DNA of 51,810 nucleotides from Candidatus Sulfopaludibacter sp. SbA3 (GTDB taxonomy: Bacteria; Acidobacteriota; Terriglobia; Bryobacterales; Bryobacteraceae), in assembly GCA_945860645.1 (NCBI GenBank), contig CAMATG010000001.1:1-51810 (forward strand), written 5' to 3'. Each line of letters starts with the position of its first letter. Position 1 is the first letter of the stretch. The translations under genes were made by a program, and so were the position numbers. The notes beneath the pieces were generated by a model. It did not search any database. It saw nothing but the letters and a program-made list of their open reading frames with translations, and was not told the DNA's origin. Positions 7,735 through 47,000 of this stretch are shown piece after piece.

Positions 7735-8760
7735 TTAACGCGGATGGTCCAATTCTCTCGCCACCGGAACCAGTTCCCTGTATAAATCCAAAGGAATCGC
7801 CGATTCCCAATGGCCCGTCAAACGGGCTCCCATATATACCACCACAAACACCACGCCAATCGCCACCGCCAGACGCTGACCGGTGATCCAACCCCGCCTC
7901 CCGGCAAACCCCACGTGCAACGCCCCTTCCGCCGGGCACGCGCTGACACACTCCATACATCCGATGCACTCCGCCGAGCGAATCTGGACAAGTTTGTCCA
8001 CCGGAAGCCGGCTCGGGCACACCCGCGCACACTTCCCGCAATCAATACACGCACTCTTCTCCCGGCCGATCCGCAACGGGCTCGCCAGCGCCGCCAGCCC
8101 CATCAGCGCTCCATACGGACACAGATACCGGCACCAGGCATTCGGCACGAACAGCGATACGATCATCAAAAACCCCAGGACCCCGGCCGCCATCGGGGAC
8201 AGGAACCGGAAGAAGTTGAGCATCTTCACATCGGCAATCAAACCGTAGGGCGAGGCCAAAAAACCCTCGATGGATGCCGCATCCATGCGCAAAACGGCAT
8301 AAAAAAACGCGAAAAATAGCGCATATTTGCACGTTCTGAGCACCAAATCGAGCCATTTTGGAGTAAGAAAACTCCTCCCAAACGCGTCTCGACCGGTTTT
8401 CCACAGCCATTCGGACACCGTTCCCACCGGGCACAGCCACCCGCAAAACGCCTTCCGGAACACCAGCGAAAGTAATACAAACGTAACGAATAACACCATT
8501 GCCGCCGGGTGTATGACCGGCATATGCCCGGTCTCCAGAAGGTACCGGGTGTTCATCATCCCGGCGATCGGCAACCACCCCTCCACCCCGGGTGGCCGGC
8601 TGGCTTCCCAGGGAATCCATCGCCCTTCCAAACCCCGAACGAAGAGGATAAAGCCGACCCCAATCCAGAGATTTAACAGTAGGAAAACACCCTGCGCCAG
8701 ACCTCTCCACCGTTGGAAATCGTCCGCGGTGACCCGTCTTTTCCACTGGTCCCGATTCAT
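7735..8760 (-). CDS. NapH/MauN-type membrane-bound 4Fe-4S ferredoxin
   Basis: Several hydrophobic helices plus CPVGTVSEW, CRYLCPYGALM, CIDCGKCARVCP and CIGCMECVSACP motifs. Confidence 0.8.
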   Translation of the reverse strand: MNRDQWKRRVTADDFQRWRGLAQGVFLLLNLWIGVGFILFVRGLEGRWIPWEASRPPGVEGWLPIAGMMNTRYLLETGHMPVIHPAAMVLFVTFVLLSLVFRKAFCGWLCPVGTVSEWLWKTGRDAFGRSFLTPKWLDLVLRTCKYALFFAFFYAVLRMDAASIEGFLASPYGLIADVKMLNFFRFLSPMAAGVLGFLMIVSLFVPNAWCRYLCPYGALMGLAALASPLRIGREKSACIDCGKCARVCPSRLPVDKLVQIRSAECIGCMECVSACPAEGALHVGFAGRRGWITGQRLAVAIGVVFVVVYMGARLTGHWESAIPLDLYRELVPVARELDHPR

Positions 8761-9073
8761 GCTTTCAGCCTAAAGCTGCGCCCCGCTGAGTGCTGTGACC
8801 AAGGTCACTGTGACGATTGTAATCATAGGGAAACAAATTCAAGATGAAATGTTTTCTCATTGAAAATAAGGGACTTATCAAAATAATAGCACTTGTAATC
8901 TAGTCCAGGTCCTGTGCTAGACTAAGGGTCCGCCCAGTCATCTGGCGGGTCACAACGGGATTCCTGCCTCGGGAACACAATCACTACATCGCCAGTTTTC
9001 AACCGGTTTTCCACACCCTGTGGAAAATCTGAGGGAAACTTTTTCCCTGTAAGGCTTCTCTACTTTTTTCACC
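8761..9073. other. candidate oriC part 1 and dnaA promoter region
   Basis: Divergent intergenic region upstream of dnaA. The AT-rich patch at about 8815-8905 stands out in a high-GC genome. A palindromic DnaA-box pair sits at 9007-9027. Gene orientation and G/C bias switch here. Confidence 0.6.
9007..9027. promoter_or_regulatory. inverted pair of DnaA boxes
   Basis: ttttccaca (9007-9015), ccc, tgtggaaaa (9019-9027). Each matches the TTATCCACA consensus at 8 of 9 positions. The pair lies 47 nt upstream of the dnaA ATG. Confidence 0.7.
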
Positions 9074-10393
9074 ATGAGTACTTGGGATCGTATCAGGCAC
9101 CACCTTTCGCAAACCATCAGCGCTGAGAGCTTTCAGAACTGGCTTGCCCCGACCGAACAACGCGAAGAATTCAGCGGGACTCTCCTCGTCAGAGTACCGA
9201 GCGAAGCAGCCAAGATGTGGCTGGAACAGGAATACGGCGACAAAATCGCCGCGGCAATCAGCGCGCTGAAACTGGACGTACGCACCGTGCTTTACGAAGT
9301 CGCCGCCGGGCCTTCAGCCCTGGCCGCTTTGACGGGCGATAAGACCGGACCGGCGAATGAAGTCCAATTCGCTTCGCCGGCAACCCAATTAAATCCGAAA
9401 TACTCGTTCGACTCCTTCGTCGTCGGCTCCTGCAACCAGTTCGCCCACGCGGCCGCACGGGCCGTGGCGGACCATCCGGCGAATCGGTATAACCCCTTGT
9501 TTATCTATGGGGGAGTGGGGATGGGGAAAACCCATCTGATGAACGCCATCGGTAGGGCACTGATGAATCACCGCGAGGGGATGAAAGTCGTATACACCTC
9601 CAGCGAACGGTTCATGAACGAAATGATCGCCAGCATCCGCACCGACCGTATGTCGCAGTTCCACCAGCACTACCGGAACGCCGATGCGCTGCTCATCGAC
9701 GACGTCCAGATCCTGGCCAACCGTGAACGCACACAAGAAGAATTCTTCCATACTTTCAACGAGTTATACGAACACGGCAAGCAAATCGTGATCTCCTCCG
9801 ACCGTCCTCCGAAGGAAGTCTCGGGGTTGATGGACCGTCTGCGCAGCCGGTTTGAGTGGGGACTGATGGTGGACGTCCAGGCGCCGGACCTGGAGACCAA
9901 GATGGCGATTCTGGACAAGAAGTCCGAAGCCGATGGGGTGCATCTCCCCGAGGACGTTCGGATCTATATCGCCACGAAGACGAAATCGAACGTGCGGGAG
10001 CTGGAAGGCGCCCTGGTGAAGCTGATTGCCTATTCCAGCGTGACCGATACCCCCATCTCACTGGCGATGGCCCAGCAGGTCCTGAAACACCTTTCCGCGG
10101 GAAGTGATAAGCGGATCACGGTGGAATCGATCATCAAGGCGGTTGCGGAGAAGTTCAGCCTGCAACCGGCGCAGTTGAAGCAGAAGACGAACGTGCAGCA
10201 GATCGCCTATCCGAGGCAGATCGCGATGTATTTGTGCAAAGAACTGACGACGGCATCGCTCCCCGAGATCGGCCGGCACTTCAATGGGAAGCATCACACG
10301 ACGGTGCTGCACTCGGTGCAGAAAATCGACAAGTTGCGGCAACGTGACGCGGACTTGAACAGGATTATCCACAGCATCACCGACGCGTTATGA
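9074..10393 (+). CDS. dnaA: chromosomal replication initiator DnaA
   Basis: Walker A GGVGMGKTHL, LLIDDVQ, the sensor region, and the C-terminal DNA-binding motif KHHTTVLHS. Confidence 0.97.
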   Translation: MSTWDRIRHHLSQTISAESFQNWLAPTEQREEFSGTLLVRVPSEAAKMWLEQEYGDKIAAAISALKLDVRTVLYEVAAGPSALAALTGDKTGPANEVQFASPATQLNPKYSFDSFVVGSCNQFAHAAARAVADHPANRYNPLFIYGGVGMGKTHLMNAIGRALMNHREGMKVVYTSSERFMNEMIASIRTDRMSQFHQHYRNADALLIDDVQILANRERTQEEFFHTFNELYEHGKQIVISSDRPPKEVSGLMDRLRSRFEWGLMVDVQAPDLETKMAILDKKSEADGVHLPEDVRIYIATKTKSNVRELEGALVKLIAYSSVTDTPISLAMAQQVLKHLSAGSDKRITVESIIKAVAEKFSLQPAQLKQKTNVQQIAYPRQIAMYLCKELTTASLPEIGRHFNGKHHTTVLHSVQKIDKLRQRDADLNRIIHSITDAL

Positions 10394-10651
10394 ACGTTTT
10401 ACGGATTTTTCCACAGACAGGGCCAAAATAGCCTGAGGAAGTCTGTGGAGGGATTTCGCCCCCCTGGGTCTTCCACCGATTCCCACTGGCGATTCCAAAA
10501 CGGCACATGACGAGAAGCACTTTGTTTTAGTACAATTTAGAGAGAATTCAACATATCCACAGGCCCTACTATTCCGATACCTGTTTAGTAATCATCTTTC
10601 ACAGAAGAACAGAAGCGGAGAAGGGCAGCGGGGACGGCAAAGGCAACGACG
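10394..10651. other. candidate oriC part 2 (dnaA-dnaN intergenic)
   Basis: DnaA boxes ttttccaca 10407-10415 and atatccaca 10553-10561. Weaker TCCAC cores at 10443-10451 (inverted) and 10469-10477. AT-rich stretch ctttgttttagtacaatttagagagaattcaacatat at about 10520-10556. Confidence 0.55.
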
Positions 10652-11778: not shown

Positions 11779-14208
<2,430 letters not shown>

Positions 14209-14272
14209 TTCGAGAGAATTATTGTTATCCTTGGGGTGCGCCGACAGAACACCGCGGCGACACCCTGCTTCG

Positions 14273-14294
14273 AGCGCCGTCCGGGCGCTTTTGT
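14273..14294 (+). terminator. rho-independent terminator after gyrB
   Basis: Stem agcgcc (14273-14278) / ggcgct (14284-14289), loop gtccg, followed by a T-run. Confidence 0.55.
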
Positions 14295-14336
14295 AAGACC
14301 AGGACTTGATCACTCCGTGACAGGTACCAAGGCATA

Positions 14337-15125
14337 ATGACTGCAAACGATTTCCGACGGGCCAAGGCCCAGGGCAGGAAGCTATCGATGGCTACCTGCT
14401 ACGACTACACGTTCGCCCGGCTGCTGGCGAAGAGCCCGATTGACGGCATCCTGGTGGGCGATAGCGCCGCCATGGTGATGCATGGGCATGAGACGACGCT
14501 GACGGCGACGGTTGAGATGATGCGGATGCATGTGGCCGCTGTGGCGCGCGGGGCGGGAGACAAGTTGGTTGTTGCCGACCTGCCGTTTCTCTCGTACCGG
14601 AAGGGACTGCCGGCGGCGATGGAGGCGGCGCATGTGCTGATGGCGGCCGGTGCGCATGCGGTGAAACTGGAAGGCGTTGGCGGGCACGAGGACGTGATCG
14701 CGCAACTGGTGGGCAGCGGTGTTCCGGTGATGGGCCACCTGGGCTTGCAGCCGCAGTCGGTGCAGGCGTACGGCGGATTCAAGCCGCAGGGCCGGGATGC
14801 CGTGGCGGCGTTGGCGATCGCGCGGCAGGCGGAGGCGCTGGAAGAGTTGGGAGCGTTCGCGGTGGTTCTTGAGTGTATTCCGGCGGCGTTGGCGGCGCAG
14901 ATTACGGCGACGATTGCGATTCCGACGATTGGGATTGGTGCGGGTGCCGATTGCGACGGCCAGATTCTGGTGCTGCAGGACCTGTTGGGGCTGAACTCCA
15001 GTTTTCGGCCGCGCTTCGCGCGGCAGTTTTGTGATGGAGAGACTGCGATTCTGAAGGCTTTGGCGGAATATGACCTCGCGGTGAAATCGTCTGAGTTTCC
15101 TCGCGCTGAGGAGAGCTACTCGTGA
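14337..15125 (+). CDS. panB: 3-methyl-2-oxobutanoate hydroxymethyltransferase
   Basis: KLSMATCYDYTFARLL, ILVGDSAAMVMHGHETT, VVADLPFLSY and KLEGG-type motifs. Confidence 0.93.
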   Translation: MTANDFRRAKAQGRKLSMATCYDYTFARLLAKSPIDGILVGDSAAMVMHGHETTLTATVEMMRMHVAAVARGAGDKLVVADLPFLSYRKGLPAAMEAAHVLMAAGAHAVKLEGVGGHEDVIAQLVGSGVPVMGHLGLQPQSVQAYGGFKPQGRDAVAALAIARQAEALEELGAFAVVLECIPAALAAQITATIAIPTIGIGAGADCDGQILVLQDLLGLNSSFRPRFARQFCDGETAILKALAEYDLAVKSSEFPRAEESYS

Positions 15126-15830
15126 AGGCCAAAAATTTTTCCGGCGCTTCGCGCCGCCACTATGTGAGGTACTGTCTACCAGGAGGACCGCAGTGACGGA
15201 AGCCGTTATTACCTCGCGAGCTACTCAGTTCCACCGAGCATTTCGGGTGTCCAAGGTGCCGATGCTGCGAACGGGTCGACTCTCTCCGCGACTCTGCTGG
15301 GACGAAAAACATTTCCCCGCGCTGCGCGCGGCCGCACGCGTTCTTAGTTGGCGAGCTGGCCGGTTCTGCAGGGCATTTCTGGTGTTTGGGGTGCCGAAGC
15401 TGCGAGCGAGTCGACTATCGCCGCGATTCTGCTGGGGCGAAAAAATTTTCCCCGCGCTGCGCGCGGCCGCAGGCGTTCTTAGTTGGCGAATTGCGCAGTG
15501 CTACAGAGCATTTCGGGTGTCCGAGGTGCCGATGCTGCGAGCGAGTCGACTATCTCCGCGAATCTGCTGGGGCGAAAAACATTTCCCCGCGCTGCGCGCG
15601 GTCGCAGGCGTTCTTAGTTGGCGAGTTGCCCGGTCCTACCGGATATTGCGGGTGTCCGAGGTGCCGATGCTGCGAGCGAGTCGACTATCTCCGCGAATCT
15701 GCTGGGGCGAAAAACATTTCCCCGCGCTGCGCGCGGTCGCAGGCGTTCTTAGTTGGCGAGTTGCCCGGTTCTACCGGATATTGCGGGTGTCCGAGGTGCC
15801 GATGCTGCGAGCCGGCAGGCTATCCCGTTC
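15110..15830. repeat. tandem array of a 135-bp unit, about 5 copies, between panB and panC
   Basis: Unit starts at 15245, 15380, 15515, 15650 and 15785 (period exactly 135). A degenerate copy lies before 15245 and a partial copy after 15785. Copies 15515-15649 and 15650-15784 differ at one base (15635 c vs 15770 t). Each unit carries the hairpin ccgcgc-tgc-gcgcgg. Confidence 0.9.
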
Positions 15831-15857
15831 ATCGCCCCAACCGATTGGAGTATCGTA

Positions 15858-16643
15858 ATGCGAGTCTCAACGAACCTCACAGAGTGGCGCGCCAGGCGCG
15901 CGGAAGTTTCCGGACGAACGATCGGCGTCGTTCCGACAATGGGTGCGCTCCACCCCGGACACGGTTCGCTGGTGGAACGCTGCCGGCGGGAGAATGAAAT
16001 CGTAGTGGCTACGCTGTTCGTCAACCCCACACAGTTCAACGACCCTTCCGATTTGCAGAAGTATCCGCGCACCTTGGAAGCAGATCTGGAACTGCTGGAG
16101 GCACTGGGCACCGATGACGTCTTCTGCCCGGACACCGCCACGCTATACCCGAACGGCTATGCGTTTCGCGTCATCTCCGACAGCCTGGCCACGGTGATGG
16201 AGGGGCGGAGCCGGCCGGGCTTCTTTGATGGTGTGATGACCGTGGTGTTGAAGCTGTTGAACATCATTCAGGCCGACCGCGCCTACTTCGGCGAGAAGGA
16301 CTACCAGCAATGGAAAGTACTCCACGCCATGGCCGCCGACCTGTTCCTGCCTACCGAGATCCTCGCCTGTCCGACGATCCGTACCGCGTCCGGACTGGCG
16401 GAGAGTAGCCGGAACGCCCTGCTGACCGCGGGCGGCCGGCAGAAGGCCGCCGAGATCTACCGCGCACTCCGGTTCGCCCCAACGGCCGATGTTGCGCGGC
16501 AGCAGCTGGAAGCCGAGGGGTTCCGCGTCGATTACGTGGAAGAACATTGGGGCCGGCGGTTTGCCGCCGCGTTTCTGGAAGGGGTCCGTTTGATCGATAA
16601 TGTGCCACTGGAGGAACCGGAATGCTCTTCTGCCTTGATGTAG
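15858..16643 (+). CDS. panC: pantoate-beta-alanine ligase
   Basis: ATG at 15858 with ggag 8 nt upstream. IGVVPTMGALHPGHGSLV (HxGH motif) and VATLFVNPTQFN. The ORF-track start at 15753 lies inside the repeat array. Confidence 0.92.
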   Translation: MRVSTNLTEWRARRAEVSGRTIGVVPTMGALHPGHGSLVERCRRENEIVVATLFVNPTQFNDPSDLQKYPRTLEADLELLEALGTDDVFCPDTATLYPNGYAFRVISDSLATVMEGRSRPGFFDGVMTVVLKLLNIIQADRAYFGEKDYQQWKVLHAMAADLFLPTEILACPTIRTASGLAESSRNALLTAGGRQKAAEIYRALRFAPTADVARQQLEAEGFRVDYVEEHWGRRFAAAFLEGVRLIDNVPLEEPECSSALM

Positions 16644-17395
16644 GAAATAGCCAGACCTTTGGGGGCGTCTACGACGGGGACACGTTGCTGTTCACGTTTC
16701 GGCGAACGGGGAGCGCGCGGGCTTCCTCAGATGAGTCCGGGATCTTCTTCAGGACGGTGTTGCGCGAGAATGGCGTGGACCCCGCTTCAGTGCGGCAGGT
16801 GGCGATTTGCTCCGTTGTGCCGGACGCGCTGCACTCACTGCGGAACTGTTTCTTGAAGTACTTTCAGGCGGAGCCGTTTGTGCTGCAGCCGGGGACGAAG
16901 ACGGGGTTGAAGATCCGGTACAGGAACCCGTTGGAGGTTGGCGCGGACAAGATTGCCAACGCGATGGGCGCGGTGGGGCGGTACCCGCGAAGGGACCTGG
17001 TGATTGTGGACTTCGGCACGGCCACGACTTTGTGCGCGGTGAACGCGGAGGCTGAGTATCTGGGCGGGATCATCACGCCGGGGGTGCAGATGTCGATGGC
17101 GGCGTTGGACGCGCGGACGGCGCGGTTGCCGGCGGTGGAGATCTGCAAGCCGGCGACGGTGCTGGGCCGCACGACGGTGGAGAGTATTCAGTCCGGGCTG
17201 TTCCACGGCACGCTGGCCACGGTGCGCACGCTGACGGGGGCGATCGCCGAAGAGCAGTTTAACGGACGGGAACCGGTGCTGGTGGGAACGGGCGGATTCG
17301 GGCGGCTCTTCGCGCAGGAGAAGCTGTTCGATGCGTTCATTCCGGAGTTGGCGCTGCTGGGTTTGCGGCGGGCTGTGGGGTTGGCGACACCGTAG
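16622..17395 (+). CDS. coaX: type III pantothenate kinase
   Basis: MLFCLDVGNSQT.., VDFGTATT, GGIITPG. GGAGGA lies 7 nt upstream of the ATG. Overlaps the panC end by 22 nt. Confidence 0.9.
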   Translation: MLFCLDVGNSQTFGGVYDGDTLLFTFRRTGSARASSDESGIFFRTVLRENGVDPASVRQVAICSVVPDALHSLRNCFLKYFQAEPFVLQPGTKTGLKIRYRNPLEVGADKIANAMGAVGRYPRRDLVIVDFGTATTLCAVNAEAEYLGGIITPGVQMSMAALDARTARLPAVEICKPATVLGRTTVESIQSGLFHGTLATVRTLTGAIAEEQFNGREPVLVGTGGFGRLFAQEKLFDAFIPELALLGLRRAVGLATP

Positions 17396-18614
17396 AATGA
17401 AGCGCGCTGTTTGCCTCGCGGAGCAACCCCATTTCAATCGGGATGGCTACCTTGGCGAGTACCGTGAACACGAACGCTCCGAGCGCCCAGATGCCCAGCG
17501 CGACGGTGAGTTCCACCCAAGTAGGAGAGTATTCGTGGATCTTGCCCCACGGTTCGGGGATGAAGCCGGGGATGATGGTGCCGATGCCCTTTTCGATGAG
17601 GATGCCGACGAAGAGCATGACGCAGGCGCTGTAGAGGACCGCCTTTTTTGCGCGCAGGTGATGGAGGGTGAGCAACCCGGTGGCGGTGGCAATCAGCGCG
17701 ATGGACGACCAGATCCAGGGAACGAGCGCGCGCTTTTCGCCGATCCCGAAGAAGAGGTAGCGGGCGCTCTGGCCGTGGTGGGTGTTGCGATAGAACTCGA
17801 CGAACAACTCAGAGATCGTCATGACGACGCAGATCTGGGCGGCGACGGTGACGACGACGGAGAGTTTCTGAATCGTTTCGTGCGCCACGGGATAACCGCC
17901 GAAGCGGCGGATGAGCGTCAGCACGAGAATCATCAATGCAGGGCCGGCGGTGAAGGCCGTCGCCAGGAAACGCGGGCCTAAGAGGGATGAGTTCCAGAAT
18001 GGCCGCGCCGGGAGGCCGGCGTAGAGGAACGCCGTGACCAGGTGCAGACTGACGGCCCAGGCGATGGAGAGGAGCACGACGGGCACGTAATAACGCTTAT
18101 CCGCTTCGCGCCCTTGCCAGTGGGAATACAGCAGGTAGAACGGGACACCGACATTGAGAGCGAGGTAGCCGTTCAAGACCAGGATGTCCCACGCCAGGAG
18201 GGAGCGCGGGAAGTTGATGCGGCCAACAACGGGGAGCAGATGCCAGAGGCGGGCGGGGCCGCCGACATCGACCACCACGAAAGAGATGGCCATGATGAGA
18301 GCGGCAACGGCCATGGCTTCCCCGATAAGGACGGCGCTGTGGAAGTCGTGATCTTTGAGCACATAGGTCGGCATGACGAGGATGACGGCGGCGGCGGCGA
18401 CACCGACGAGGAAGGTGAAATTGGAGATGTAGAATCCCCAACTGACGTGATCGTGGAGGCCGGTGACGATGAGGCCTTCGCGGAGCTGGACAGAGTAGGC
18501 CCAGGCGCCGCAGCACATGAGGAACGTGAGGACGCCCATCCAGGCGTGATAGGCGGTGGACCCTTGGGTTGCCTCGCGCAACGCGTCGTTGAAGAAAGCT
18601 CGCAGTGTGCGCAT
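17337..18614 (-). CDS. NrfD/PsrC-family integral membrane quinol-interacting subunit
   Basis: 425 aa, about 10 hydrophobic helices. Sits immediately downstream (3-nt gap) of an NrfC-like FeS protein. Confidence 0.8.
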   Translation of the reverse strand: MRTLRAFFNDALREATQGSTAYHAWMGVLTFLMCCGAWAYSVQLREGLIVTGLHDHVSWGFYISNFTFLVGVAAAAVILVMPTYVLKDHDFHSAVLIGEAMAVAALIMAISFVVVDVGGPARLWHLLPVVGRINFPRSLLAWDILVLNGYLALNVGVPFYLLYSHWQGREADKRYYVPVVLLSIAWAVSLHLVTAFLYAGLPARPFWNSSLLGPRFLATAFTAGPALMILVLTLIRRFGGYPVAHETIQKLSVVVTVAAQICVVMTISELFVEFYRNTHHGQSARYLFFGIGEKRALVPWIWSSIALIATATGLLTLHHLRAKKAVLYSACVMLFVGILIEKGIGTIIPGFIPEPWGKIHEYSPTWVELTVALGIWALGAFVFTVLAKVAIPIEMGLLREANSALHSTVSPTPQPAANPAAPTPE

Positions 18615-32714: not shown

Positions 32715-34123
32715 AGGAGTTCCTCGTTGTTTTCTGCCGTGGACGGTTCGGTCAGCAGGCTGCCGGCAACGAAGGCAACAGCGCTCAATACGGGTGGGAG
32801 AAGGGTGTCGAGCCCGGCCCATTCGGGCGGGACCACGAAATAGCAGATGCCGCGGGCGATGGTTCCCGCGAGGATACTGGCCAGAGCGCCAGCCTGTGTG
32901 GCGCGGGCCCAGTAGACGCCCAGGAACAGCGGAATCACACAGCCGGCGAAGACGATGTCGAAGGCGACGACTAGTAGAATGCCGGGTTCAGGCCGGACGT
33001 AGGCGATCCAGGCGGCGGCGATGGCCGTCGGCAATGCCAACGCGCGGGAGAGGAAGAGCATTGTTTCATCGGTGACCTTTTTCGTGCTCCAGCGCTGCCA
33101 CACGTTGCGGGCCATGACGACGGAGATGACGAGCATGGCGCCGTTGGCGGTGGACATCGATGCGCCCATGACGCCGACGAAGACCATGACGCCGATCCAG
33201 TAGGGTAGATGGGTGCTGGCGAAGATGGGGAGCACCATGCGCGGGTCCTCCACTGTGCCGATGGCGGAGATGGCGGCCATGCCGAGGAGAGAGGCGGAAA
33301 GGCCGATGACCATGGTCCAACCGGCGGCGTAGTAGCAGGCCTTTTTCGCGGTTTCCGGGGATTTGGCGGAGAAGACGCGCTCCATGAAGTCCAAGGCCAT
33401 GGCGTTGCCGAAGGCGAGGGAGATGATGTTGGCCCAGTTGGCCAGGCCACCACCGGAGAGGGTGGTGAGCTGGCTGATGTTGAGCGTAGCGGGCGGCAGG
33501 GCCGCGGTGATCGGGCCCCAGCCGCGGGTATATAGAACGTAGGCGGCGGCGCAGACGAAGCCGATGATGGCGACATGGATTTGGAAGAAGTCGGTCCAGA
33601 TGGCGGCGTAGAGGCCGCCGGCCACCGTGTAGAGCAGGATGACCGTGGTGCCGATAGCCAGGCATTGGCCGTAGCTCAAGCCGCTGACGACGGAGAGGAT
33701 CCAGGCGACGGCGGAGAGGTTGCCGGCGACGACGACGATGAAGCAGAGGATGGTCAGAATTGACGCAAGTAACTCCGCAGTGCGGCCGTAGCGGCGGTAA
33801 AAGAACTCCGGAAGGGTGAGCAGGTCCATCTTGTTCAAGGGACCGGCGAGGAAGCGGCCGACGATGAGAAGGCTGGCGCACAGGCCGATTGGGATGGCTG
33901 CGCCGGCCCAGAAGCCTGTGGAAAAAGTGAGAGATGTGTTGCCGAGAGTGGCGTTGCCGTCGATGGCTTGCGCTGCCAACGCGGTTCCAACGACCAGAAA
34001 CGGCATGGACTTGCCGCAAACGGTGTATCGTTTGCTGGAACCCTGCACTTGCGTGTAGGTATAGAGACCAATGGCCAGCGAGATGGCCATAAAGATCACG
34101 ACCGGCCAAAGCATGCCTGTCAT
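32699..34123 (-). CDS. sodium:solute symporter family (SSS) transporter
   Basis: 474 aa, about 13 hydrophobic helices, typical SSS N-terminus. First gene of the carboxylase operon. Confidence 0.85.
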   Translation of the reverse strand: MTGMLWPVVIFMAISLAIGLYTYTQVQGSSKRYTVCGKSMPFLVVGTALAAQAIDGNATLGNTSLTFSTGFWAGAAIPIGLCASLLIVGRFLAGPLNKMDLLTLPEFFYRRYGRTAELLASILTILCFIVVVAGNLSAVAWILSVVSGLSYGQCLAIGTTVILLYTVAGGLYAAIWTDFFQIHVAIIGFVCAAAYVLYTRGWGPITAALPPATLNISQLTTLSGGGLANWANIISLAFGNAMALDFMERVFSAKSPETAKKACYYAAGWTMVIGLSASLLGMAAISAIGTVEDPRMVLPIFASTHLPYWIGVMVFVGVMGASMSTANGAMLVISVVMARNVWQRWSTKKVTDETMLFLSRALALPTAIAAAWIAYVRPEPGILLVVAFDIVFAGCVIPLFLGVYWARATQAGALASILAGTIARGICYFVVPPEWAGLDTLLPPVLSAVAFVAGSLLTEPSTAENNEELLCDTP

Positions 34124-45641: not shown

Positions 45642-47000
45642 CTAGCGCTCCACTGCCTCCAGATGCCGCCGCGTCTCCAATACCTCCGCATGCGCCGCAC
45701 CCAATTGCCGCTGCCGGATCGCAAGCGACTCCCGGAACAACTCCTTCGCCCGCTCCCGCTCCCCGGCCAACGCGGAGGCATGGCCTCCGGCTTCCAGGAT
45801 GTCCGCCCACACCAACGGCTGGCCCTCCCACTTCTTCCGCAGCACCGGCAGGTTCCGTTCCAATGCGTCCTTCACGCTTACTCCAGCAAACAGCTCCGGA
45901 ACCACATGCGCCGCCAGTCGCGCCCGCGCGCCCTCCCTCTCCAGTCGCACCGTCTGCAGCCACAGGCCCAGCGAAGCAGCCAGCAACGCCACCACAAATC
46001 CCACGCCGATCCAATGCCTCTGCGCATACTTCGACGCGCGATACATCCACCCCACCCCATGCGCCTGCACCGGTCGCCCCATTTCATACGCCCGCAAATC
46101 ATCCAACAACTCCGTCACCGATCGGTACCGGTCCTCCGGGCGCAGCTCCATCGCCTTCGAAACAATCTGCGCCAGATCCCGATCCACTCCCGCCTGCCCC
46201 TTCCCCGCCAGCAGTTCGTGCAGCAACTCCCCCAATCCATACACGTCCGTCAATGTCGTCACCGCCCCGCCGCTCCGCTGCTCCGGCGCCGCATACCGCG
46301 GTGTCAACGGCGCAGGCCCCGTCTCCGCCGTCTCGTCCAGCAGCCGCGCAATCCCAAAATCCAACAGCTTCGGCTGCCCATCGGCGGTGACCAGAATATT
46401 GCTCGGCTTCAGATCCCGATGCACCACCAGGTTCCGATGCGCATACTCCACCGCCTCTCCCACCAACCGGAACAACCGCAGCTTCTCCCGCAAAGCCGGC
46501 CCTTTTGCCACCCAATCCGCCAGCGGCTCCCCATCCACATACTCCATCACGAAATACGGCTCCCCAGCCTCCGTCCGTCCGCCATCCAACAGCCGCGCAA
46601 TCCCCGGATGCTCCAACCGCGACAGAATCCGGCGTTCCACCAGAAAGCGCCGCAACACCTCCGCCCCCTCCCGCCGCATACACTTCACCGCCACCGTCTG
46701 CCGGAACTCCTCCCCCTCCCGTTCCGCCAGATACACCGTTCCCATGCCGCCCCGGCCCAACACCCGCAACACCCGATACTGCCCGATCTGCGCCGGCGCC
46801 ACCTCCTCCCAGAACAGCCCCAACGAACTCTCCGCCGCCTCGAACCACGCAAACGCTTCCCCCTCATTGCGCAACATCGCCAACACCGTCCGCGCCAGTT
46901 CCCCCTCCCCGGCACACTCTACCGCCAGAAACTCCTCCCACCGTGCCGCCGGCATCTCCCGGGCCGTGTGGTACAGACTATCCAGCCGCTCCAGTTTCAT
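45642..47000 (-). CDS. Ser/Thr protein kinase with transmembrane helix and C-terminal helical-repeat region
   Basis: GRGGMGTVYLA, VAVK, HRDLKPSNILV, DFGIARL, APE. TM segment WIGVGFVVALLAASLGLWL. ATG at 47000 preceded by GGAGGG at 7 nt. Confidence 0.9.
   Translation of the reverse strand: MKLERLDSLYHTAREMPAARWEEFLAVECAGEGELARTVLAMLRNEGEAFAWFEAAESSLGLFWEEVAPAQIGQYRVLRVLGRGGMGTVYLAEREGEEFRQTVAVKCMRREGAEVLRRFLVERRILSRLEHPGIARLLDGGRTEAGEPYFVMEYVDGEPLADWVAKGPALREKLRLFRLVGEAVEYAHRNLVVHRDLKPSNILVTADGQPKLLDFGIARLLDETAETGPAPLTPRYAAPEQRSGGAVTTLTDVYGLGELLHELLAGKGQAGVDRDLAQIVSKAMELRPEDRYRSVTELLDDLRAYEMGRPVQAHGVGWMYRASKYAQRHWIGVGFVVALLAASLGLWLQTVRLEREGARARLAAHVVPELFAGVSVKDALERNLPVLRKKWEGQPLVWADILEAGGHASALAGERERAKELFRESLAIRQRQLGAAHAEVLETRRHLEAVER

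Follow-up and report, generated by a model that had tools for sequence, protein, structure and literature searches.

We describe here an array of 135-bp tandem repeats that lies between panB and panC, two pantothenate genes, in Candidatus Sulfopaludibacter sp. SbA3 (Acidobacteriota, Bryobacteraceae). The DNA analysed, referred to below as the window, is a stretch of 51,810 nucleotides (assembly GCA_945860645.1, contig CAMATG010000001.1, positions 1 to 51,810, forward strand). The gene order is dnaA-dnaN-gyrB-panB-panC-coaX, with gyrB upstream of panB and the array separating panB from panC. The features of the locus are as follows.

14198..14225, plus strand: sigma-70-like promoter match, TGGACA-16-TATTGT, in the gyrB-panB spacer (consensus scan alone)
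14337..15125, plus strand: panB, ketopantoate hydroxymethyltransferase, 262 aa (PF02548, E 7e-99)
14979..15125, plus strand: putative progenitor segment, the last 48 panB codons and the stop (D-L-L-G...E-S-Y-S*), homologous to the repeat unit (sequence comparison)
15122..15196, plus strand: mini open reading frame (ORF) of 24 codons, putatively translated (sequence reading)
15126..15244, plus strand: unit 0, a decayed first copy (sequence comparison)
15193..15858, plus strand: ORF1, an open reading frame of 221 codons crossing the array, proposed to be translated as a "relay" ORF
15245..15784, plus strand: four full 135-bp units (Tandem Repeats Finder, block scan)
15283-15348, 15418-15483, 15553-15618 and 15688-15753, plus strand: conserved 66-nt cores (unit alignment)
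15317-15331, 15452-15466, 15587-15601 and 15722-15736, plus strand: unit hairpins (sequence reading)
15785..15857, plus strand: partial last unit (28 nt identical to unit 4), then a probable relic of the panB-end/panC-start junction
15858..16643, plus strand: panC, pantoate-beta-alanine ligase, 261 aa (PF02569, E 3e-81)
16622..17395, plus strand: coaX, type III pantothenate kinase, overlapping panC by 22 nt (PF03309)

Tandem Repeats Finder places the array at 15239-15812, with a period of 135, 4.3 copies, 90% matches, no indels and a score of 903. Full units begin at 15245, 15380, 15515 and 15650, and a partial fifth copy begins at 15785, equals unit 4 over 28 nt and diverges thereafter. A preliminary description of this DNA had already given this period and these starts. 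Our recount also bears out its statement that the central copies are one base apart (units 3 and 4) and that the first and third units differ at 16 of 135 positions, except that these 16 differences cause 14 amino-acid changes rather than 13. The decayed copy that it saw beginning at the panB 3′ end is real as well. This unit 0 has an A/T tract (15131-15140) and a hairpin, CGGCGC-TTC-GCGCCG (15142-15156), and contains an insertion of ~40 nt in which AGGAGG (15181-15186) and a GTG (15193) are found; there is no such insertion in the related locus L031 (such numbers denote the loci of relatives). Each full unit has a core, columns 1-66 of the unit (TCTCCGCGAWTCTGCTGGGGCGAAAAANNTTTCCCCGCGCTGCGCGCGGNNNCAGGCGTTCTTAGT), composed of an A/U tract, the hairpin CCGCGC-TGC-GCGCGG and GCGTTCTTAGT. 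The invariant blocks of the unit occur four times, whereas chance would give ~0.1, and the rest of the 51.8-kb window has none. In front of panC, a Shine-Dalgarno sequence, GGAG, lies at 15847-15850, followed by TAATG at 15856-15860.

In the genomes and metagenomes scanned, all true matches of the core are located at panB-panC. An exact 20-mer scan covering one genome per species gave true matches in only two metagenome-assembled genomes (MAGs), a Bryobacteraceae bin from Lake Mendota (L018) and an Acidobacteria bin (L026); of the 17 genome hits, the remaining 15 were isolated matches attributable to chance, in unrelated taxa that do not have the other blocks. A degenerate 29-mer scan of Joint Genome Institute (JGI) metagenomes gave three loci. 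The element, with all its true occurrences between panB and panC, is therefore not dispersed. A dispersed element resembling repetitive extragenic palindromes (REP), miniature inverted-repeat transposable elements (MITE) or mycobacterial interspersed repetitive units (MIRU) was rejected on the same scans, which found no copies outside panB-panC in the window, the genomes or the metagenomes.

PanB of identical sequence is encoded on metagenomic contigs from rivers, lakes, estuaries, groundwater and drinking water. About five lineages bear the array: the window type, L018, L026, L028/L043 and L031/L032, to which the truncated contigs L041 and perhaps L042 can be added. Their PanC proteins are at least 86% identical to that of the window; L041 and L042 belong to a clade with 86-94% PanC identity in which contigs end at the array. 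Seven more distant relatives (L033, L034/35 and L036-L040; PanC 67-76% identical) have no array, and in these the panB stop overlaps the panC start as TGATG, TAATG, TAGTG or ATGA. Since all seven share such an overlap, it appears to be the ancestral state.

The panB-panC spacer is 733 nt long in the window and in L001, L003, L008, L009 and L029, 598 nt in L002, L006, L007 and L018, 463 nt in L026 and 328 nt in L010, every difference being a multiple of 135. ORFs called at the same locus measure 86, 131, 176 and 221 aa; the 86-aa ORF of the L026 type (P0122) is one unit shorter within the L026 lineage too, and one metatranscriptome contig skips 270 nt. Arrays of equal length differ in the internal order of their units, which indicates unequal exchange or gene conversion, and units of one lineage resemble each other more than they resemble those of other lineages, that is, they show concerted evolution. 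The array is a lineage-restricted, copy-number-variable tandem repeat (variable-number tandem repeat, VNTR) at panB-panC: its head-to-tail units exceed ~10 bp, and in short-read assemblies their number changes among lineages in whole-unit steps. The comparison of repeat number among strains thus shows that "expanding minisatellite", one of the options considered at the outset, was essentially correct.

The unit very likely derives from the 3′ end of panB itself, rather than being an inserted element as had been proposed. panB contains the hairpin CCGCGC-TTC-GCGCGG at 15009-15023, where it encodes P-R-F-A-R, one period upstream of the first hairpin of the array, that of unit 0 (133 nt in the window, 131 nt in L031). 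The next spacing is 175 nt, owing to the 40-nt insertion in unit 0, and 135-nt intervals follow. When a profile hidden Markov model (HMM) of the unit was compared by nhmmer with the masked window and three array-less loci, the panB 3′ end was the best match in three of the four sequences (E values there: L033 0.003, L036 0.008, window 15008-15061 0.058, L034 0.59). Translated in the PanB frame, the unit matches residues 223-245 of L033 PanB (BLASTP, E 0.005; FSPRCARPQAFLVGE--LRSATEHF / FRPRFAR--AFFDGEAPLVSALEHF). Unit 0 of L031 opens with TGATGC, apparently a relic of the stop/start overlap.

Cruder tests of this origin did not reach significance by themselves. Local alignment of the unit with the whole window did not rise above shuffles, in-register global alignment scores were mixed (p 0.001-0.2 by lineage), and BLASTP of the second open frame gave no match to the window's own PanB, only the PanB of an array-less relative being matched. 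Furthermore, only the 5′ ~60-90 nt of the unit are recognisable as panB, a similarity that is weak taken alone. The claim of an origin from panB therefore rests on the profile and protein matches in relatives, together with the register, and on these we regard it as well supported.

Three further observations concern panB. The units resemble the PanB C-terminus of an array-less outgroup (L033 1212-1358, AFFDGE..SALEHF) more than that of their own clade (14979-15125, QFCDGETAILKALAEY), which suggests that PanB diverged at its C-terminus once the duplication had taken place. At four-fold sites, panB is consistently more similar to its window counterpart than panC is (identity of 0.83 vs 0.66 in L018, 0.77 vs 0.60 in L026 and 0.62 vs 0.56 in L031), which could be due to recombination or to unequal constraint on either side of the array. 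Lastly, the sequence at 15008-15034 within panB, GCCGCGC-TTC-GCGCGGC followed by AGTTTTGTGA, scores as terminator-like; this hairpin, from which the unit hairpin putatively descends, is translated and for that reason probably silent.

The junctions created around the array retain start signals. In the window, what appears to be the ancestral panC Shine-Dalgarno sequence, GAGGAG (15108-15113), precedes the GTG at 15122, which overlaps the panB TGA (GTGA). The TGA of the mini-ORF overlaps in turn the GTG of ORF1 (GTGA), with AGGAGG upstream, and the TAA of ORF1 overlaps the panC ATG (TAATG); ORF1, with its GTG 6 nt after AGGAGG and its TAATG end, had been correctly identified in the preliminary description. 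The same chain is present in L026, where the ORF1 start reads ATGA. In two lineages an ORF reaches 23 nt into panC: that of L018 has 208 codons, begins at a GTG on the panB stop and traverses the array, and that of L031 has 200 codons and begins at the relic TGATG. In each of the five lineages, the array is crossed by ORFs that start on the panB stop.

Could these ORFs encode a protein? A genuine repeat protein encoded by ORF1 or by the second open frame would fit with the annotation of ORFs of 86, 176, 200 and 221 aa at the locus by gene callers, with the strong Shine-Dalgarno sequence and start codon of ORF1 and with a frame that is open in several lineages. However, the ratio of nonsynonymous to synonymous differences (pN/pS) between lineages is 0.81, 0.79 and 1.04 in the three frames. 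GC content at codon positions 1/2/3 of ORF1 is 0.65/0.58/0.62, without a coding signature, compared to 0.76-0.85 at third positions in neighbouring genes. Pfam gave no family above threshold for ORF1, and a word-indexed protein search with ORF1 gave no match. An exhaustive search of 1.84 billion representative proteins found three same-locus ORFs and one spurious repeat ORF (P0124), and no homologues from elsewhere. Contigs L001-L009 have near-identical called ORFs of 176 and 221 aa, yet these went unmatched in the word-indexed search; because the exhaustive search did find same-locus ORFs, the word-indexed negative is a database or filter quirk and not a true absence. In addition, frames, starts and stops differ among lineages, and the product is arginine-rich and looks like an out-of-frame translation. 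The array ORFs are not a conserved protein, and there is no selection at the amino-acid level, in agreement with the earlier view that conservation here does not follow codons. We thus consider a functional repeat protein extremely improbable.

Translation without a functional product is another matter. Among 13 distinct units from four lineages, all four newly arisen stop codons fall in plus frame 2 and none in frames 0 and 1, with equal opportunity in each (14/16/12 stop-creating substitutions by plus frame; (12/42)^4 = 0.007); on the minus strand, stops occur in all three frames. The probability that both frames stay open is 0.07 when bases are randomised at the observed columns and 0.0003 when columns are random. 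This pattern is suggestive of a spacer that is translated, with nonsense but not missense mutations being selected against. Metatranscriptome contigs cover the array at a depth similar to that of panC, and one of them joins the array to panC. A consensus scan gave no promoter-like sites within the array, and the sigma-70-like match upstream of panB is the only one near the operon. Given this coverage and the lack of promoter-like sites in the array, panC and coaX probably depend on transcription through it and, plausibly, on ribosome traffic through it.

We therefore lean towards the following reading, to which we give moderate confidence: the array is a VNTR formed by duplication of the final ~45 panB codons and the panB-stop/panC-start overlap, and it is crossed by relay translation. 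The ancestor would have had overlapping, translationally coupled panB and panC genes (TGATG). A duplication spanning the junction, amplified via unequal recombination or slippage, would have wedged 328-733 nt between them, and the copies would have decayed to non-coding sequence now in concerted evolution. The spacer would be transcribed within a panB-panC-coaX mRNA. Because each duplicated junction seems to have kept a Shine-Dalgarno sequence and a start, ribosomes leaving panB could re-initiate on ORFs extending across the array; in the window they would pass from the panB TGA/GTG to the 24-codon ORF, through TGA/GTG to the 221-codon ORF1, and on to panC at TAA/ATG. Such meaningless translation may keep ribosomes on the spacer, preserve the coupling of panC and avoid polarity, making the insertion tolerable, and with a 135-nt unit equal to 45 codons the copy number could change with the frame intact. 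Both the translation of the relay ORFs and its benefit are inferred.

Several points count against relay translation or limit its evidence. In L028 the relay ORF (174 codons) ends 85 nt short of panC, and in L018 the AGGAGG-type start soon meets an early stop. Stop avoidance is only moderately significant, the lineages share ancestry, and two open frames in a GC-rich unit of 45 codons are not rare a priori. The metatranscriptome contigs are unstranded and may contain DNA, and short-read assemblies can collapse 135-bp repeats, which makes single copy numbers uncertain. Relay translation also leaves unexplained why columns 1-66 are conserved in excess of synonymous sites, as described below. The break in L028 is caused by an insertion of ~84 nt in the A tract of the last unit (L028 ~850-940, and also in L043), which carries an 8-bp inverted repeat (GACACTCT...AGAGTGTC) and may be a small mobile or hairpin element.

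That broken relay would be expected if the array were purely a neutral or slightly deleterious minisatellite, in which open frames and overlaps are passive leftovers and panC is translated from its own GGAG-ATG. Such an account accommodates the free variation of copy number from 1 to 4 units, the Shine-Dalgarno sequence that panC retains, the GTG on the panB stop, which follows automatically from the codons TCG-TGA, and the P of 0.07 for stop avoidance under the stricter randomisation. Columns 67-135 of the unit agree with it as well, being invariant at 24/69 positions, which is the neutral, synonymous-site rate. What it does not accommodate is the 5′ part of the unit: columns 1-66 are invariant at 49/66 positions across four lineages, compared to 40% of four-fold sites in panB and panC (p 1.7e-8), and this contrast survives restriction to three lineages and to panB sites only (p 8.5e-4 to 1.5e-5). 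It also fails to predict that new stops arise in a single plus frame yet in all three minus frames, and that a strong AGGAGG-N6-GTG/ATG overlapping the stop of the upstream ORF is conserved in the window and L026 lineages. We consider a purely neutral array unlikely, though it deserves serious consideration. The nucleotide-level constraint claimed in the preliminary description is accordingly upheld for the 5′ 66 nt, which are over-conserved, but not for columns 67-135.

It is unlikely that the core is conserved through gene conversion from panB. The units all have in common derived states not seen in panB (the A run, the TGC/TAC loop and a 6-nt insertion), and lineage-specific changes in panB are not mirrored in the units.

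The conservation of the core keeps alive a cis-acting role for the A/U tract and hairpin. Each unit might be a cis-acting module (A/U tract, 6-bp GC hairpin, GCGUUCUUAGU) on the polycistronic mRNA or on DNA, involved in RNase E-type processing with a protective hairpin, in partial termination or in the binding of a protein or regulator to RNA or DNA; it could thereby set the ratio of panB to panC-coaX, with copy number as a tuning knob. In addition to the invariance of columns 1-66, which is robust to the choice of reference, such a module gains from an A/T tract and hairpin that four lineages also retain in unit 0, where a stem change is compensatory (GGCGC/GCGCC in unit 0 vs CGCGC/GCGCG in the units, the one such swap), and from a single stem substitution from G-C to G-U that an RNA helix tolerates.

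Tests of structure added little beyond these changes. The array does not fold more stably than dinucleotide shuffles (z = +1.4 on the plus strand and +0.6 on the minus strand), nor do two units (z = +1.1 and +1.6). The RNAalifold energy is -15.3 kcal/mol and its covariation term -0.11 from the ~5 lineages available; the hairpin pairs are almost invariant and three weak pairs show double changes. Two candidate helices, CTGC/GCAG (columns 12-15 / 52-55) and CTGCG/CGCAG (40-44 / 51-55), were discarded by eye as broken without compensation in L026, L028 and L031. Rfam at gathering scores gave no match in the window, the pan motif (RF01749) included, and at E <= 10 the region 14900-16000 gave only two chance-level matches, both to families other than pan and unrelated; a search with ARAGORN was negative for tRNA and tmRNA. 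On these tests the array is not demonstrably a structured RNA, contrary to its initial characterisation as structured. The only solid structure is the 6-bp GC hairpin, which appears to be inherited from the P-R-F-A-R codons of panB.

These results bear directly on the cis-acting module. Its hairpin is probably a by-product of the P-R-F-A-R codons, whose nucleotides vary in the more distant panB genes of L037, L039 and L040, and the module would have arisen from coding sequence only within this clade. The unit hairpin is not followed by a U tract, and the search for intrinsic terminators gave one weak match in the array (15324-15341) and 5 in the region, compared to 3.1 +/- 1.9 expected in shuffles. 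We therefore regard a cis-acting module as improbable. It is tempting to speculate that the 66-nt core was recently co-opted from panB coding sequence as a cis-regulatory module, making the array a copy-number "rheostat" of the pantothenate/coenzyme A (CoA) operon, and this too we hold to be a distant prospect. If it were true, the core would be a site of mRNA processing or stability or of regulator binding, and the relay ORFs would keep the spacer translatable.

Other types of element were considered and rejected. An oriC or DnaA-box array does not fit, as 15100-15860 contains no TTWTCCACA box with up to one mismatch. REP elements and the related bacterial interspersed mosaic elements (BIME) do not fit with a hairpin block confined to the array. 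The block GGTGCCGATGCTGCGA has the GG-N10-GC spacing of a sigma-54 promoter but, by eye, is unconserved in L031. Differences between units are not adenine-specific, which argues against a diversity-generating retroelement (no reverse transcriptase search was made).

The nearest known counterpart is found in Mycobacterium, although the preliminary description had found no described equivalent. MIRU-VNTR loci are intercistronic repeats that are transcribed within operons and whose ORFs overlap the flanking stop and start codons, so that translation is coupled and their insertion tolerated (PMC12548453, PMC3184786). MIRUs, whose description PMC3184786 credits to Supply et al. 1997, measure 40-100 bp, occupy ~40-50 loci per genome and are apparently mobile (PMC3184786, PMC12548453). 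Like these, the array consists of tandem repeats in an operon, oriented in the sense of the genes, contained in the polycistronic mRNA and variable in copy number, with internal ORFs whose ends overlap the flanking stop and start codons (of -4/-1 type in MIRUs; here GTGA, GTGA/ATGA and TAATG). Unlike them, it has a 135-bp unit that occurs at one junction only and comes from the upstream gene's own 3′ end, and it belongs to another phylum (Acidobacteriota, Bryobacteraceae). Position and ORF overlap thus agree with MIRUs whereas dispersal, the 40-100 bp size and origin do not, a distinction drawn from their description and not from direct sequence comparison. We suggest that the array works like a MIRU but is not one.

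With bacterial minisatellites and VNTRs in general the array shares head-to-tail units, more than 10 bp in length, that evolve in concert and vary in number among strains. It differs in lying between essential biosynthetic genes that formerly overlapped, and in having a unit that is a multiple of 3, with two stop-free frames and half of its length under nucleotide-level constraint. REP and BIME sequences are ~35-bp palindromes with hundreds of dispersed copies, often in alternating orientation, that can modulate the stability of mRNA segments. The array resembles them in having GC-rich intercistronic hairpins in an operon, but its hairpin is 15 nt long and found in a single orientation at one locus. 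In Chloroflexi, Firmicutes and delta-proteobacteria, the pan motif RNA is found upstream of panB, as a defined stem from which A residues bulge. It is tied to panB/panC genes and is often tandem (RF01749; Weinberg et al. 2010, PMC2864571). The panB-panC array likewise combines tandem organisation with pantothenate genes but does not match RF01749.

Elsewhere in the window, DnaA-box-like sites (TTWTCCACA with up to one mismatch) cluster at 8397-9027 and 10365-10561, flanking dnaA (9074-10393), where the cumulative GC skew also reaches its minimum (~8-10 kb); this region is likely oriC, ~4.6 kb upstream of the array. Long antisense ORFs are typical artefacts of GC-rich genomes, and an 855-aa ORF antisense to gyrB (11779-14346, minus strand) is probably not a gene. 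Other short tandem repeats, with ~2 copies each, occur at 33686-33734, 45648-45698 and 14908-14936 (periods 21, 27 and 15), the last of them within panB. Downstream of coaX, on the opposite strand (17337-18614 onward; L001 6667-10407), genes for an NrfD-type membrane subunit, a 4Fe-4S protein, multihaem cytochromes and a molybdopterin-binding protein form what looks like a polysulfide/nitrite-reductase-like respiratory cluster.

On present evidence, the array reveals no new RNA class or regulatory system. Under relay translation, it would instead be a natural example of overlapping, coupled genes that were pried apart by a junction duplication carrying its own ribosome-binding and start signals. 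Such a spacer could persist as a VNTR, its multiple-of-3 unit and stop-free frames letting ribosomes bridge hundreds of nucleotides. This would extend the MIRU-type principle, that coupled junk ORFs make intercistronic repeats tolerable, to another phylum and to repeats of endogenous rather than mobile origin. For annotation, the array is a warning that the "hypothetical proteins" of 86-221 aa called at this locus are not real protein families. For the abundant freshwater Bryobacteraceae, it may provide a marker for strain typing.

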